Virus record (IMG/VR): IMGVR_UViG_3300012983_000039
Coordinates: 27,306 to 91,305 of that record
Length of the DNA: 64,000 bases
Direction: 5' to 3' (one strand)
From: a virus
Lineage: Duplodnaviria > Caudoviricetes
The position numbers and the translations under genes were made by a program. This document shows, piece by piece, positions 59,838-64,000 of this stretch; positions within the stretch are counted from its first letter, which is position 1, and each line of letters begins with the position of its first letter. The notes under the pieces were generated by a model that saw only the letters and a program-made list of their open reading frames with translations, was not told the DNA's origin and made no database searches.

Positions 59838-59853
59838 GAAGTTCAACATTTAG

Positions 59854-59992
59854 CCCAACCTTTAAAAAAATATTATTCAAATAACCCAACCCTTTAAATT
59901 TTACTACTCAAATGGAAATTTGGACCAACCCTTAAAAAAATATTATTCAAATGGAAATTTGGACCAACCCTTAAAAAAATATTATTCAAATG
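59854..59992. repeat. Imperfect direct repeats CCAACCC(T)TTAAAAAAATATTATTCAAAT(GGAAATTTGGA), about 4 copies
   Basis: Read directly in the divergent intergenic region. Confidence 0.85.
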
Positions 59993-60106
59993 AAAAAATG
60001 GAGAGGGGAGTGTTTTGGCGGGTTTTGGCAATTTTTGGAAAAATGATACCCCCTATTTTACATAATGTTAAATAAGCTGACAAGGCCCTAAAATTTCAAA
60101 AAAGTA

Positions 60107-60135
60107 TTGACATTTTTAAAAGGGTATTGTATAAT
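60107..60135 (+). promoter_or_regulatory. sigmaA promoter (first of the rightward series)
   Basis: TTGACA-17-TATAAT followed by ATAAATGTAGTCAA, as in the downstream cassettes. Confidence 0.85.
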
Positions 60136-60203
60136 ATAAATGTAGTCAATAGACTATAAAAATTAAATAGTCGCAAAATGCGACAGAAAGACGGTGTTTT
60201 TTT

Positions 60204-60836
60204 ATGAAAAACAGGATAATGAATATGAACAATTCCAGCTTTATTAACGGAGTCTTCTATAAGGGCAAAAAAAGACTTTGCTCTTTGGATGAAATCAAGG
60301 TAGATATTATTGAAAATATTTTTAGTAAAAAGCAAGGGTTAATACTTTGCTATAATAAAAACGAACTTTTGTATTTCAAAAGAGTATACAAAAGGGATTT
60401 TGAAAGGGATTTTGAATCCTTAATTTATATTAAAGAGCATTCGAATAGCATAGATATAGCTTTTAGGTTAACAACTGAAAGCTATAAAGTTCTTCAGGGT
60501 TATTCAGATATTATCCCGCCAATATCCCAAAGGGATATATCTGAATGGCTGTATAAAAATCAACCGAATTATAAGGTTCATCAGCTCGGTGGATTTTGCG
60601 AATATTGCCTTAGTGGCAATATTAATGATTTTGTTAATCCCACACGAAAAAAAGCCCATGATGTGTGGATTGACGGCAAATGTTTTGAGGTTAAAAGCTC
60701 GCTTTGCGGTTTTAAGCTTGAAAAACAGGCTAACAACCCATTAAATCTATGGTTATGGGATGTTAAAGAGCATCGCTTAAAAGCCATGAGAGAAAGCTAT
60801 TCAATCTCAAATGGATATTATAAAATTGAAGTGTAA
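60204..60836 (+). CDS. Hypothetical protein with a PD-(D/E)xK nuclease-like motif
   Basis: LGGFCEY...AHDVWIDGKCFEVKSS. Confidence 0.55.
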   Translation: MKNRIMNMNNSSFINGVFYKGKKRLCSLDEIKVDIIENIFSKKQGLILCYNKNELLYFKRVYKRDFERDFESLIYIKEHSNSIDIAFRLTTESYKVLQGYSDIIPPISQRDISEWLYKNQPNYKVHQLGGFCEYCLSGNINDFVNPTRKKAHDVWIDGKCFEVKSSLCGFKLEKQANNPLNLWLWDVKEHRLKAMRESYSISNGYYKIEV

Positions 60837-60853
60837 AATCCGTCAAATAATGG

Positions 60854-60877
60854 AAGCACCCTTCGGGGTGCTTTTTG
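60854..60877 (+). terminator. Intrinsic terminator with UUCG loop
   Basis: AAGCACCC-TTCG-GGGTGCTT-TTTG. Confidence 0.9.
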
Positions 60878-61071
60878 TCATATTTTTTAACACCCATATT
60901 TTGTCAATTTTACTTCCATTTCTGCCATATTCTACCATGTCAATATTTTCTGTATTTCCATATTTTACTAGTTTAAGTAGGACCACTTTTGCCATATTCT
61001 GCTAGTAAAATTTTACCATTTTATTAATCATTTTATCCATATTCTACCTTTACAGTTATTTCCTTTTTATC

Positions 61072-61193
61072 CATATTCTACCATTCCAACCACTACCATA
61101 AAACTTCCAACTTCTACCATTCCATTTATTTCCTTTTAATTTACATATTCTACCATTCCAACCACTACCATAAAACTTCCAACTTCTACCATT
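61072..61193. repeat. 50-bp direct repeat x2 (period 72) within a C-rich TTCTACCAT-repeat tract
   Basis: CATATTCTACCATTCCAACCACTACCATAAAACTTCCAACTTCTACCATT at 61072 and 61144. Confidence 0.9.
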
Positions 61194-61534
61194 TATGGTA
61201 ATAATTCCGTGGTCCTATTTCTAGGACCACTTCTACCATTTTCCACCACTCACGCCACATATTTCCACCACCATAATTTTCCATATGCGAGCTGGAAAGC
61301 TGGAACTTCCTACCATTCCGCTCGTGGTCCTACTTCTAGGACCACAATTGTTGTTTTCTTCTTTAAATTTACAGGAATTGGCACTGGTATTATTTACTAC
61401 TAAGCGAGCTGCGAGCTGGAAGTTTTAGGAAGTTCAAAGTGGTCCTAGATTAATTCTTTTTATTTACAGTTGTTAAAATTTTAACATATAGTTGTGCCGG
61501 CTTCCATAAAATTACAGGAAATATAAAAATTGTA

Positions 61535-61599
61535 TTAATAAATTGTTTACAAATAAATTTTAAAAAGGTATTGACTTTTATTAAGGAATATGTTATAAT
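61535..61599 (+). promoter_or_regulatory. Cassette 1 promoter with upstream 18-mer
   Basis: TTAATAAATTGTTTACAA at 61535; TTGACT 61571; TG-TATAAT 61594. Confidence 0.88.
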
Positions 61600-61643
61600 A
61601 TAAATGTAATCAAGAGAAACCAATTTTAAAGGAGTCGATTTTA

Positions 61644-61850
61644 ATGAGTAGAGTATACGATTTTGATAACCTTGAGACCTTATCTGAGGTTCTCGGAATG
61701 GACCTTCAACTGGGTTGCGGTGATTATATCGACCGCAGCAGTGGCGATAGTGTCGCAGAGTGCGACCACTATTTCGACTGGCAACTCATCCAATTATTGG
61801 ACGAGTTGTCCGATGAACAGGTTTTACCTGTTCTTTACAGAGGGAATTAA
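61644..61850 (+). CDS. Small acidic early protein (cassette 1)
   Basis: Promoter, AAGGAG RBS, 68 aa, terminator. Confidence 0.8.
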   Translation: MSRVYDFDNLETLSEVLGMDLQLGCGDYIDRSSGDSVAECDHYFDWQLIQLLDELSDEQVLPVLYRGN

Positions 61851-61863
61851 TTCCCTCTTTTTT
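61839..61863 (+). terminator. Cassette 1 terminator
   Basis: AGAGGGAATTAATTCCCTCTTTTTT. Confidence 0.85.
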
Positions 61864-62154
61864 CCAATAAAATTTTTGTTAAAAAATTAACAGCAATTCT
61901 AGGACCACTATGGTGTGGCGGCACTATGTGGTCCTAGTTTTACTTCCAATAAATAGAAGTTAATTGTGGTCCTAGAATTAGGACCACTATAAAGATAATT
62001 GCTTCCAATATATAGGAGTTGTTAAGATTTTAACAAATTGGTGTGGTCCTAGATTTATTTCCATTATATAGAAGTTGTTAAGATTTTAACAAAATTAAGT
62101 GGTCCTAGATTATTTCCAGATAATAGAAGTTGGGCCGCACTTCCAATAAATGTT

Positions 62155-62219
62155 TTAATAAATTGTTTACAATTAAATTTAAAAAAAGTATTGACTTTTA
62201 AATGTAGATATGTTATAAT
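62155..62219 (+). promoter_or_regulatory. Cassette 2 promoter with upstream 18-mer
   Basis: 18-mer at 62155; TTGACT 62191; TG-TATAAT 62214. Confidence 0.88.
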
Positions 62220-62272
62220 ATAAATGTAGTCAAGGGAACTACATCAAATATTATTCTTAGGAGTTGTTTTAG

Positions 62273-62488
62273 ATGAACAGAATGAAAAAGGAAAAAATTA
62301 GAAAACTACAAGAAAAATTGTATGGTTATGGACATTATTTTCCTAACCTGATTCCAGAGAAGTGGACATGGGAGTCCGCTTGGAAATTCAAGGAAGAACT
62401 GGTAAAAAGACGTGATGCCGGTGAGATTTCAGTAATTTCTTTTACCTTTCTTTATGGGGCAATTTGGGATTACATCAAATTGATGTAA
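62273..62488 (+). CDS. Small early protein (cassette 2)
   Basis: AGGAG RBS, 71 aa, terminator AGAGGGATTTAAATCCCTCTTTTT at ~62503. Confidence 0.8.
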   Translation: MNRMKKEKIRKLQEKLYGYGHYFPNLIPEKWTWESAWKFKEELVKRRDAGEISVISFTFLYGAIWDYIKLM

Positions 62489-62806
62489 TCCCAAAGGAAA
62501 TAAGAGGGATTTAAATCCCTCTTTTTCCCATTTAAAAATTCTGTTAAAAATTTAACAACTACTTCTAGGACCACAACCATTATATCCAATTCTTTACAGT
62601 TATGGTCCTACTTTATCTACCTTATTTTTACAGTTGTGGTCCTACTTTGTTATTCCAATTCCTTACAGTTGTGGTCCTAATTCTAGGACCATTTTCTCCT
62701 TATTCTACCACTCCAATTCTGGAATTAATTGGTAAGACAATAATTTCAAGCGAGCTGGAAAAAGCTAGAAATTATTGTGGTCCTACTTTATTTTCCTTTT
62801 AATTCC

Positions 62807-62872
62807 TTAATAAATTGTTTACAAATAAATTTTTAATTTTCTATTGACAATACCGCTCATATATGATATAAT
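62807..62872 (+). promoter_or_regulatory. Cassette 3 promoter with upstream 18-mer
   Basis: 18-mer at 62807; TTGACA 62844; TG-TATAAT 62867. Confidence 0.88.
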
Positions 62873-62923
62873 ATAAATGTAGTCAAGAGAGACTACATTA
62901 AAATTTAATAGGAGTTGGTAGAA

Positions 62924-63145
62924 ATGAATAGAAATCAGTATTTTGAGGGCGATGTTATCGCCACATCAACAGATTTCGGTGGTATAGAGGTATACTATAT
63001 CACTGATGAAAGAATGTATATAATGGTAGGAGTTATGGGTGATGAACCTACCAAACATAGAGCCAAAATTTACCACGATACTGAAATACCTTATATCAGG
63101 TTATACGGTAGACGTTTACGACTGGACTCTTTTATAAGAGTTTAG
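62924..63145 (+). CDS. Small early protein (cassette 3)
   Basis: AGGAG RBS then ATG 62924; terminator AGAGGGATTTAATCCCTCTTTTT at ~63159. Confidence 0.8.
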   Translation: MNRNQYFEGDVIATSTDFGGIEVYYITDERMYIMVGVMGDEPTKHRAKIYHDTEIPYIRLYGRRLRLDSFIRV

Positions 63146-63311
63146 TCTAAAGGAAATAAGAGGGATTTAATCCCTCTTTTTCCAACTAAAAAATCTGTTA
63201 AAAGTTTAACAATAATTCTAGGACCACTGCGCCGCCACTAGATAAACTTATCGTTTGTGGTCCTAAATCGCTTCCATTATATAGAAGTTGGGCCGCACTC
63301 CAATTACTTCC

Positions 63312-63377
63312 TTAATAAATTGTTTACAAATTAATTTTTAAAAAAGTATTGACATTTATATATGGATATGTTATAAT
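63312..63377 (+). promoter_or_regulatory. Cassette 4 promoter with upstream 18-mer
   Basis: 18-mer at 63312; TTGACA 63349; TG-TATAAT 63372. Confidence 0.88.
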
Positions 63378-63422
63378 ATAGGTGTAGTCAAGAGAGACTA
63401 TTAATATTTAAGGGGTATTCAT

Positions 63423-63620
63423 ATGAATATTTTACAATTGTGCCGTTTATCAGACTCTTTTAAGGAATATACCATTAACATGGTAAAGTGTAAAGTGTTA
63501 ACTGATAGGTTATACTATTTTATTCAGGCGAGTGCTATGTTGGAAGCTTGTTTGAATTTAGAACTCATAAATGAGTATGAGTTCGATCACATATATGCTG
63601 TTTTAAACAGATTATATTAA
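63423..63620 (+). CDS. Small early protein (cassette 4)
   Basis: AAGGGG RBS, 65 aa, hairpin ATCCCTAAAGC/GCTTTGGGGAT at ~63627-63659. Confidence 0.78.
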   Translation: MNILQLCRLSDSFKEYTINMVKCKVLTDRLYYFIQASAMLEACLNLELINEYEFDHIYAVLNRLY

Positions 63621-63934
63621 TTTTAAATCCCTAAAGCTTTTTTAGCTTTGGGGATTTTTCCCTTTTTGTTTTGTTAAAAATTTAACAAATAATTCTAGGA
63701 CCATTTATACTACTATTGGATAACTTTTACAGTTGTGGTCCTAATCTACTTCTAAAAGATGGAAGTTTAAAATGTGGTCCTACTTTTAGGACCACGGTTG
63801 TTAATTATTAACAAAATAATGTGGTCCTAGATTATTTCCTTTTATTTACAATTGTTTGTTAATTTTCTAACAATATTGTGGTCCTAGATTCACTTCCAGA
63901 TAATAGAAGTTGGGCCGCACTTCCAATAATTGTT

Positions 63935-63998
63935 TTAATAAATTGTTTACAAAAAATTTTTAAAATCTATTGACATTTCTTTTTATATATGTTATAAT
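63935..63998 (+). promoter_or_regulatory. Cassette 5 promoter (gene lies beyond the window)
   Basis: 18-mer at 63935; TTGACA 63970; TG-TATAAT 63993. Confidence 0.85.
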
Positions 63999-64000
63999 AT

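Follow-up and report, generated by a model that had tools for sequence, protein, structure and literature searches.

A one-directional row of small-gene units built on a shared regulatory frame in a large uncultured phage

We consider that the window, by which we mean the whole 64,000-nt stretch of DNA analyzed, probably closes on the start of an immediate-early region, in which about 24–25 self-contained, mostly single-gene units would be read by the host RNA polymerase and would exchange genes at the frames that surround them. The source contig is 91,305 nt long and is cut at both ends; the end of the window is also the end of the contig and lies inside the promoter of the fifth unit. The phage is uncultured and large (about 164 kb), is probably of the siphovirus type, and probably infects low-GC Gram-positive bacteria, most likely clostridial ones. 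A DNA search among cultured phages found no close relative, and the portal protein is only 20–30% identical to those of large Firmicutes phages. The features of the row that lie in the window are as follows.

60091–60875, plus strand: unit 0, a sixth unit, with the same promoter and leader as the others and no 18-mer
60091–60153, plus strand: unit 0 promoter and leader (TTGACA at 60107, TATAAT ending at 60135, ATAAAT-GTAGTCAA)
60204–60836, plus strand: unit 0 cargo, a 210-aa ORF (203–209 aa from alternative starts)
60852–60875, plus strand: unit 0 intrinsic terminator (-16.5 kcal/mol, z -3.9)
60880–61467, unstranded: non-coding repeat field with CCATATTCTACCA-type words, a 72-nt repeat (61072–61193) and GAGCTGGAA words
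61209–61230 and 61324–61345, unstranded: palindromes of the repeat field, with a half-site at 61439
61468–61486, unstranded: Rex-like box TTGTTAA-N4-TTAACA, with further copies from about 61877, 62020, 62076, 62542, 63196 and 63672
61535–61643, plus strand: unit 1 frame (18-mer 61535–61552, promoter 61571–61599, leader without a hairpin, RBS)
61644–61850, plus strand: unit 1 cargo (ORF1), 68 aa, acidic, pI 4.1
61839–61864, plus strand: unit 1 terminator, AGAGGGAATTAATTCCCTCT plus a U run
61966–61987, unstranded: full palindrome GTGGTCCTA-N4-TAGGACCAC, with more full sites at 62671–62692 and 63774–63795 and about 16 half-sites between
62155–62272, plus strand: unit 2 frame (18-mer, promoter 62191–62219, leader with 5' hairpin, RBS)
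62273–62488, plus strand: unit 2 cargo (ORF2), 71 aa, basic
62502–62528, plus strand: unit 2 terminator (-17.8 kcal/mol)
62807–62923, plus strand: unit 3 frame (18-mer, promoter 62844–62872, leader with 5' hairpin, RBS)
62924–63145, plus strand: unit 3 cargo (ORF3), 73 aa, or 76 aa from a TTG at 62915
63158–63184, plus strand: unit 3 terminator
63312–63422, plus strand: unit 4 frame (18-mer, promoter 63349–63377, leader with 5' hairpin, RBS)
63423–63620, plus strand: unit 4 cargo (ORF4), 65 aa, with a 37% identical paralogue two units on
63625–63668, plus strand: unit 4 terminator, a different, 14-bp hairpin (-19.6 kcal/mol)
63878–64000, plus strand: unit 5 frame, truncated by the contig end (half-site, GC box, 18-mer 63935–63952, promoter 63970–63998)

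All units point in the same direction, and between one cargo gene and the next there recurs a stretch of 100–240 nt, present in about 25 copies, in which terminator, Rex-like box, 20-bp palindrome, GC box, 18-mer, promoter and 5' hairpin follow one another. An earlier note on this DNA had described such a repeating unit from the letters alone, and its anatomy is borne out. The 18-mer TTAATAAATTGTTTACAA occurs exactly at 61535, 62155, 62807, 63312 and 63935 and nowhere else in the 91,305-nt contig; other matches in the window all carry 3 mismatches, and none of 100 shuffles reached 7 matches. A gap of 18 nt (19 nt in unit 3) separates it from a promoter of the form TTGAC(A/T)-17-TGnTATAAT, in which 11–12 of 12 positions agree with the consensus and a TG precedes the -10 element, and the leader GTA(G/A)TCAAG, an RBS and the ORF come after. 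The terminators, including the different hairpin of unit 4, have folding energies of -11 to -20 kcal/mol (z -2.7 to -4.9). When 26 frames are aligned, they are nearly invariant from the -35 element to +20. The note's description of one-gene expression units in which the frame is conserved and the cargo is not is supported, and the units look autonomous. High identity among frames could arise through selection on regulation alone. A 5'-terminal hairpin folds in 25 of the 26 leaders, unit 1 being the sole exception; it is weak (-3 to -9 kcal/mol), and its 3' arm shows G.U-compatible changes, but true covariation is lacking because the 5' arm never varies. Rfam returned only RsaD, below threshold (39 bits against a cut-off of 50) and on the minus strand, which we took as chance.

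The frame is restricted to the array. With an nhmmer profile of it, 6 sites each are detected in the 91-kb contig and in a 64-kb companion contig, all within the array, and over 155 kb of this genome type it has no match outside. Promoters of the genome fall into at least three stereotyped classes, each with flanks of its own, as would be expected of temporal classes, and the array frame is one of the three or more; in a 152-kb relative, 42 consensus promoters are stereotyped in this way. We see the array frame primarily as a regulatory module.

The array continues past the window edge, as had been supposed. A metagenome contig, L113, equals window positions 63735–64000 over 266 of 266 nt (100%) and then carries about 11 further units, and a second contig, L136, which is 97% identical to L113 where the two overlap, extends the row by 5 more. 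Nearly all cargo proteins, namely ORF1–3 and the cargo of L113 and of IMGVR_UViG_3300012983_000049, have exact copies on one 163,890-nt contig, and we therefore put the full array at about 24–25 units. IMGVR_UViG_3300012983_000049 was first taken as an unrelated phage with common frames, having only five weak protein matches to the source contig; we rejected this reading, and since its cargo shares the 163,890-nt contig with the window cargo, it is the other part of the same genome type. The frame of unit 5 recurs one unit further on in L113 over 147 of 147 nt, and this identical repeat probably explains the assembly break at the contig end. In a scan of IMG/VR with the 18-mer, 23 of 24 matches were single chance matches and L014 was the only true relative. 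Among bacterial genomes, the 20-mer TATAATATAAATGTAGTCAA gave chance matches along with a single family of mobile-element promoters from Clostridia MAGs, which hints at a host without identifying it.

As the earlier note had it, the small ORFs of the window (68, 71, 73 or 76, and 65 aa) are unrelated, in that ORFs 1–4 show no match to one another. Nor do the four match Pfam, PHROG or PADLOC, or any known host-takeover, anti-defense or toxin family in these. Homologues of ORF1 (84–100% identical) and ORF2 (75–100%) occur within this phage lineage only. ORF3 belongs to a small family of proteins of about 75 aa, with a 49% identical paralogue further along the array; its predicted structure is a confident all-beta model (pLDDT 94) for which Foldseek has no match in the PDB (best E 0.56) and VIA-align gives nothing above Z 3.9. 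Sequence-search matches of ORF3 to large proteins were rejected as repeat artefacts. The cargo of unit 0 has no family match, and its cluster at 90% identity has 10 members. Elsewhere the array carries a deoxyribonucleotidase-like protein (phrog_2643), an HD hydrolase, three PcfJ-like paralogues and numerous small proteins confined to the lineage, a mix typical of early regions. PHROG scans of 14 cargo proteins found no host-takeover family except phrog_2643, and the sole PADLOC match was a weak Cas3-HD-like one for the HD protein. The ORFs that flank the array encode a sigma-like protein, phrog_3314 and unknown proteins. There is no recombinase gene adjoining the array and no recombinase match in any cargo, in agreement with the note's comparison to an integrase-free cassette array.

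Taken together, we propose the following course of events. Upon DNA entry the main, sigma-A-type RNA polymerase of the host would read the one-directional row, with very strong initiation expected from the A/T-rich upstream region that contains the 18-mer and from the near-consensus promoter (-35, 17-nt spacer, extended -10). The likely start of transcription is a G that stands 7 nt downstream of the -10 element, and the first 20 nt or so of the RNA may fold into a 5'-end hairpin of 5–7 bp that most likely shields the message from 5'-end-dependent decay. A strong RBS would then give one small protein per unit, and an intrinsic terminator is predicted to insulate each unit from its neighbors. 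The Rex-like box, the TGGTCCTA-N4-TAGGACCA palindrome, which lies about 88 nt upstream of the -35 element, and the GC box resemble operators, and such palindromes could time or shut off the whole class together. With 100–240 nt of frame recurring about 25 times, single genes may be duplicated, deleted or replaced as one frame recombines with another by homology, converts it or slips against it.

The earlier note had supposed that genes are swapped, gained or lost through the common flanks and had suggested comparing relatives for the presence and absence of cassettes; from the sequences we regard gene exchange at the frames as partly supported. Two frames, a pair that flanks cassette 6, are identical over 147 of 147 nt around unrelated genes, the left edge of this block being a GTGGTCCTAG half-site, and the frame of a 169-aa gene is 95% identical to that of an unrelated 161-aa gene. 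One lineage has cassette B whereas L136 lacks it, and it is at the frame that the homology changes. Neither ORF4 nor the next cargo turned up on the 163,890-nt contig, where their neighbors are present in exact form, so that two adjacent cassettes are apparently missing, as judged from exact-sequence look-ups of the contigs carrying each protein; by the same kind of look-up ORF4 was not found on a 172,725-nt contig either. In the strain contig L102, a 230-nt deletion has both ends in copies of GTGGTCCTA. On the other side, homologues of most cassettes occur in the 172,725-nt relative and the order, too, is apparently kept between lineages, so that turnover would be modest and gene content fairly stable. 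This stability could be read as that of a fixed regulon, in which the frames are alike through a common polymerase and common regulators and recombination is incidental, with no real part in gene gain or loss. Such a reading fits the orthologues of gene A, whose frames are 99% identical whereas gene A and its flanks are 86% identical in DNA and 84% in protein, and the two other promoter classes of the genome are equally stereotyped. We nevertheless hold it to be rather unlikely: selection alone needs no identity over 147 of 147 nt around unrelated genes, the similarities of frame and cargo disagree, paralogues are dispersed within the array and not in tandem, and both the variable cassette B and the apparent absence of ORF4 and its neighbor from an otherwise identical genome speak against it.

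Two further readings give the promoters or the palindromes a different role. Transcription pulls the leading end of the T7 genome into the cell, and about 25 co-directional consensus promoters might likewise pull the genome in, or soak up host RNA polymerase, as their main point. Terminators every 500 nt or so would suit a pulling motor poorly, and the good RBS, the intact ORF kept in relatives and the strong terminator of each unit argue for protein output from short transcripts. We thus think this account very improbable, even though the common direction of the units, the match of the promoters to 11–12 of 12 consensus positions with an extended -10 element, and the repeat-rich non-coding field that adjoins the array, and that ends the contig in the 152-kb relative too, are all in its favor. 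It is yet harder to believe that TGGTCCTA-N4-TAGGACCA is the crossover site of a phage recombinase in an integron-like array. A perfect palindrome does lie in almost every junction, both ends of the L102 deletion fall exactly within copies of GTGGTCCTA, and the 147-nt block begins at a half-site, but a 9-nt direct repeat suffices for slippage, the palindrome stands also beside minus-strand genes beyond the array, and each unit has its own promoter, unlike integron cassettes, while no recombinase gene adjoins the array. Moreover, the left edges of the other similarity blocks vary, falling at the GC box, at the 18-mer or further upstream, and for this reason we rank site-specific crossover at the palindrome low. 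An immediate-early region whose units recombine at their frames remains the reading that we prefer.

The boxes of the junctions deserve separate comment. The TGTTAA-N4-TTAACA box and the TGGTCCTA/TAGGACCA words that the earlier note had listed occur in the contig 7 and 26 times, the former all in the array stretch and the latter all within the last 3 kb, and in minimal frames that also carry the 18-mer the palindrome starts 86–91 nt upstream of the -35 element. The repeat field differs in length in L102. GGWCC inside the palindrome was considered as a restriction site and rejected, as the rest of the sequence, outside the array region, shows no depletion of it (27 seen against about 33 expected). 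We entertain, as a doubtful idea, that each junction is a multi-operator switch at which the redox sensor Rex of the host, bound to clostridial-type TTGTTAA-N4-TTAACAA boxes, and a putative dimeric binder of TGGTCCTA-N4-TAGGACCA would gate all of the approximately 25 early units together, or alternatively that the palindrome is a dedicated cassette crossover site. If the switch were real, the phage would tune its takeover program to the metabolic state of the host. The extra palindromes point to regulators yet to be found.

As a natural example of single-gene expression units that are insulated from one another, the array is very regular, and it belongs to a phage whose low-GC Gram-positive hosts are probably clostridial. 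Its approximately 25 near-identical promoters, predicted to be strong, may be of use as parts together with the terminators and the defined 5' hairpin, and its short list of putative small early proteins supplies natural candidates for host-takeover or counter-defense factors.

The closest known systems are the promoter-early stem-loop (PeSL) cassettes that T4-type phages carry in their hyperplastic regions (Arbiol et al. 2010, PMC2839356; Comeau et al. 2014, PMC4122927) and the host-takeover module of SPO1. A PeSL cassette places ahead of small ORFans an early promoter that follows the host consensus, with A/T-rich sequence upstream of it, and a stem-loop terminator; conservation spans about 100 nt or more, and recombination between copies is proposed to insert, delete and swap single genes with their own regulation and with no integrase (PMC2839356, PMC4122927); the idea of an integrase-free cassette array is thus not new. 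Mini-circles and promoter and terminator activity have been demonstrated for PeSLs (PMC2839356, PMC4122927), whereas the promoters and terminators of the present array are predicted from sequence. Here, too, a composite of host-consensus promoter and terminator is repeated (26 frames, 11–12 of 12 positions, z -2.7 to -4.9) and stands before small ORFans, ORF1 and ORF2 being confined to the lineage and the window cargo having no family match. The two differ in that PeSLs form scattered islands in T4-like myoviruses, with terminator and promoter interleaved, whereas here one continuous, one-directional row of about 25 lies in a large, probably siphovirus-type phage of low-GC Gram-positives, terminator and promoter are separate, and the frame is longer (150–240 nt), with a Rex-like box, TGGTCCTA-N4-TAGGACCA, a GC box and a conserved 5' RNA hairpin.

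In SPO1, a large lytic phage of a Gram-positive host, the module comprises about 24–26 genes, small and for the most part unique, that are driven by strong early promoters of the sigma-A type and whose products act on the DNA, RNA and division machinery of the host (PMC10531801, PMC6873191). The SPO1 module lies in the terminal redundancy, encodes gp37–gp60 and shuts off or redirects host processes. By sequence the array is likewise a cluster of small genes under strong host-type promoters. However, SPO1 groups its genes into operons, whereas here nearly all genes form separate units, each with a terminator, and the cargo has no host-takeover PHROG match save the deoxyribonucleotidase-like protein. 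In the pre-early, or first-step-transfer, region of T5 the host-type promoters are very strong, the genes include small ones without known function and one for a 5'-deoxyribonucleotidase, and a non-coding field dense in direct and inverted repeats adjoins the region; the T5 genome has a terminal repeat and enters the cell in two steps. The array resembles it in its strong host-type promoters, its small genes, a deoxyribonucleotidase-like protein and an adjoining repeat field; homologues of T5 A1/A2 were not found. An integron shares with the array a row of unrelated small genes and a recurring junction with palindromes, but its cassettes are promoterless, whereas each unit here has its own consensus promoter and intrinsic terminator, and there is neither an IntI tyrosine recombinase by the array nor an attC-type site. 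Exchange here is best explained as ordinary homologous recombination. The array matches the known layout of early host-takeover and PeSL-type regions and is not a new kind of mobile element, and it would extend the PeSL idea, that regulatory junctions double as recombination joints, beyond the T4-type phages of Gram-negative hosts.

The array observation made in the earlier note is confirmed and extended by our analysis. The window forms the right-hand 64 kb of one 91,305-nt virus contig with 30% GC and ends where the contig ends; the contig start falls within a gene, and both contig ends are therefore assembly breaks. Late and structural genes lie to the left of the array, among them those for a portal, a tape measure and a sigma-like protein (phrog_5767). 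The portal is just 20-30% identical to those of large Firmicutes phages such as Phass-1, Enterococcus EF1-type and Bacillus FADO, and the array DNA gave no match when searched against cultured phages. A window scan found the identical 18-mer claimed for the array, TTAATAAATTGTTTACAA, exact at all five positions (61535, 62155, 62807, 63312 and 63935); its sole other matches in the window carry three mismatches, and 0/100 shuffles reach as many matches. Within the 91,305-nt contig, the 18-mer, the half-site TGGTCCTA (26 copies) and the box TGTTAA-N4-TTAACA (7 copies) are confined to the array stretch. The predicted promoter, TTGAC(A/T)-17-TGnTATAAT, was likewise recovered, matching 11-12/12 consensus positions and lying 18 nt downstream of the 18-mer (19 in unit 3); in each unit it is followed by ATAAAT, the leader GTA(G/A)TCAAG, an AGGAG-type RBS and then an ORF. 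The cargo differs from unit to unit as proposed, in that ORF1-ORF4 of units 1-4 (68, 71, 73 and 65 aa) show no mutual similarity when compared, and a strong intrinsic terminator closes every unit (predicted -11 to -20 kcal/mol, z -2.7 to -4.9). The window holds a further unit:

60091-60875, sixth unit (unit 0): promoter and leader as in the others, without the 18-mer; codes for a 210-aa protein

The 5' UTR of this 210-aa ORF (60143-60206) is long, about 60-80 nt, with three predicted hairpins (-14.8 kcal/mol, z -3.5), the third followed by a seven-U run that abuts the ATG at 60204; it could be a leader attenuator. At 59848-60002, between the sigma-like gene start and the first array promoter, a 39-nt unit of CCAACCCTTAAAAAAATATTATTCAAATGGAAATTTGGA type stands four times in tandem, adjoined by a divergent TTGACT-17-TATAAT promoter (59837-59809, minus strand) that points at the sigma-like gene. 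The field 60880-61440 is non-coding throughout. Words of the CTACCATT kind abound in a 72-nt direct repeat, which has two copies at 61072-61193 and three in the strain contig L102 (reverse strand, 1196-1324).

Alignment and motif mapping of 26 junctions gave a minimal frame of about 200-240 nt, with its parts in the following order:

Part 1, terminator, often the same AGAGGGA..TCCCTCT hairpin
Part 2, Rex-like box, a candidate by likeness to the clostridial Rex consensus TTGTTAANNNNTTAACAA (PMC5367854)
Part 3, 20-bp palindrome TGGTCCTA-N4-TAGGACCA, with its start 86-91 nt ahead of the -35 in minimal frames that also bear the 18-mer
Part 4, GC-only box, GTGCCGGCAC or GGGCCGCAC
Part 5, the 18-mer
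Part 6, A-rich stretch
Part 7, TATTGACA
Part 8, spacer, conserved in part
Part 9, TATGTTATAAT
Part 10, ATAAAT
Part 11, GTAGTCAAG(A/G)G..ACTAC

The window's five units have longer junctions (277-807 nt) with additional half-sites and boxes. A 5-7 bp hairpin is predicted within the initial ~20 nt of the RNA in 25/26 units; its 5' arm is invariant, and its 3' arm varies in position and accepts changes compatible with G.U pairing. A search with an nhmmer core-frame profile hit the array only, with six sites in the 91-kb contig and six in its 64-kb companion. Putative binders of the palindrome and Rex-like box, a possible message stabilisation by the hairpin and the roles of the small proteins are the points of biological interest.

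The claim that the array continues past the window edge also holds: contig L113 (6,640 nt) matches window 63735-64000 at 266/266 nt and carries ten more units that share promoter and leader with those of the window, along with one two-gene unit in which the promoter is kept and the leader is a different one. One of the units of this continued array, at L113 818-1180 (minus strand), has palindrome, GC box, 18-mer-like box and a TTGACT-17-TGGTATAAT promoter, no GTAGTCAAG hairpin leader, and two ORFs (75 and 56 aa) ahead of the terminator. Scanning metagenome contigs for the palindrome yielded several small contigs built almost entirely of such units. Five further units come from contig L136, which overlaps the L113 end at 97%, and L113/L136 in turn overlap the start of the companion contig IMGVR_UViG_3300012983_000049 (63.9 kb, CheckV completeness 38%), which has six units at its start and minus-strand genes thereafter. 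By exact-sequence look-ups, a single 163,890-nt contig carries ORF1-3, the L113 cargo and the six cargo proteins of the companion contig. The companion therefore supplies the other part of one ~164-kb genome type; it had first been read as an unrelated phage because almost no proteins are in common, a reading ruled out by its cargo on that same contig. We put the full array at about 24-25 units, spread over some 17 kb. On a 172,725-nt contig, sequence look-ups found many of the cargo proteins in diverged form.

Just past the array (companion stretch L014, 2440-2560 and 3700-3810), three minus-strand genes of 256, 262 and 160 aa carry at each 3' end the palindrome plus a GAGCTGGAA word, and two have their own 4-5 iteron-like repeats upstream; the products look like DNA-binding proteins with private operator sets. 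An ORF at L001 1839-2288 resembles, as judged by eye, a TnpB/OrfB protein in its N-terminal part. Over 58 aa it shares 84% identity with a companion-contig ORF, and we read it as a mobile-element remnant in the phage genome.

The earlier note proposed that shared flanks let genes be swapped, gained or lost. Its interpretation is partly supported: it holds for the one-gene-unit architecture and for some exchange at the frames, while early timing and cargo function stay putative. Cassettes 6 and 7 are preceded by frames that agree at every position over 147 nt, from a GTGGTCCTAG half-site through the hairpin end, and the genes behind these frames are unrelated; this repeat probably explains why the assembler stopped at window position 64000. 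The frames of a 169-aa gene and an unrelated 161-aa gene are 95% identical. Those of the orthologous gene A are 99% identical, with gene A and its flanks at 86% in DNA and 84% in protein, and the gene after it (161/162 aa) has a protein identity between lineages of just 47%. Frame and cargo relationships, as read from these comparisons, disagree. Cassette B is present in one lineage (A, B, 161-aa gene) and absent from L136 (A, 162-aa gene), and paralogues are scattered rather than tandem (ORF3/cassette 10, ORF4/cassette 7, two 170-aa genes, PcfJ A, B and C). In protein look-ups, ORF4 and the next cargo were the sole cargo not found on the 163,890-nt contig, which has exact copies of their neighbours; assembly collapse of identical frames could account for the absence of cassette 6, but not for that of ORF4. 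In strain contig L102 a stretch of 230 nt between two GTGGTCCTA copies is missing, and the 72-nt repeat has one more copy. Most cassettes, however, have counterparts in the 172,725-nt relative, which speaks against great fluidity of the array. The similarity blocks begin on the left at differing points, a pattern closer to ordinary homologous recombination or gene conversion than to exchange at a dedicated site.

The frame is best read as the signature of one regulatory class, probably a temporal one, because at least two further stereotyped promoter classes exist in the genome, each with its own upstream and transcribed flanks, and 42 consensus promoters, nearly identical to one another, occur in a 152-kb relative with a sigma-like protein at 53% identity. 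The second class (GGCGGCACAAC..ATTTTGTTAAAT, then TTGAAAATTTTTTAATTTT(A/G)TG(C/T)TATAAT, then ATTTATAGTAAAG) has ~13 copies ahead of minus-strand genes on the minus strand at companion positions 12400-33516 (in L014 from 7903 on, in L064 as far as 16719); the third has AAGTCAAG upstream and TATATTATAAAAT downstream, and contig position 1788 (L001) is a further location for these two classes. In the 152-kb relative (L067 1-2900, IMGVR_UViG_3300035517_000383), ~2.9 kb of non-coding simple repeats (CTGAAT/CTGAAAT runs, ACACAACAATAAC-type units) extend beyond the sigma-like gene up to the contig end and may be a genome-end region. The 20-mer TATAATATAAATGTAGTCAA (-10 box and first transcribed bases) recurs directly after -35/-10 promoters (IMG/VR loci L028-L040; genome loci L042-L063). 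Phage contigs that have it are unrelated and of 34-41% GC, with some copies before tRNA genes; in several Clostridia MAGs it stands ahead of a mobile-element-type gene of 92 aa. Mobile elements of these hosts may have it in common as a promoter and start region.

As to the cargo, ORF1 (acidic, pI 4.1) and ORF2 have homologues in this lineage only (75-100% identity), ORF3 belongs to a small ~75-aa family (17 representatives among 1.84 billion), and ORF4 has homologues on small contigs only. Structural comparison of the confident all-beta model of ORF3 gave no significant match. Cargo farther down the array includes an HD hydrolase, three PcfJ-like paralogues, a deoxyribonucleotidase-like HAD protein (phrog_2643) and further unknowns. 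The cargo matched none of the defence-system models scanned, and a role in host takeover or anti-defence is therefore a suggestion based on position and on analogy.

The array is not an integron: it lacks both an integrase and attC, and each unit brings a promoter of its own. T4-type phages carry about 50 composite early-promoter/stem-loop (PeSL) motifs ahead of ORFans (PMC2839356), and through recombination between these motifs genes are inserted, deleted and swapped, with mini-circles arising as well (PMC2839356; PMC4122927). The cassette-exchange model of the earlier note is in essence the PeSL model. By analogy, the closest functional parallels in large lytic phages would be the SPO1 host-takeover module, with 24-26 small early genes within a 13-kb terminal redundancy, and the T5 pre-early region. 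This array is set apart by its phage and host group, its strict one-gene-per-unit regularity over ~25 units, its longer, multi-box frame and its conserved 5' hairpin.
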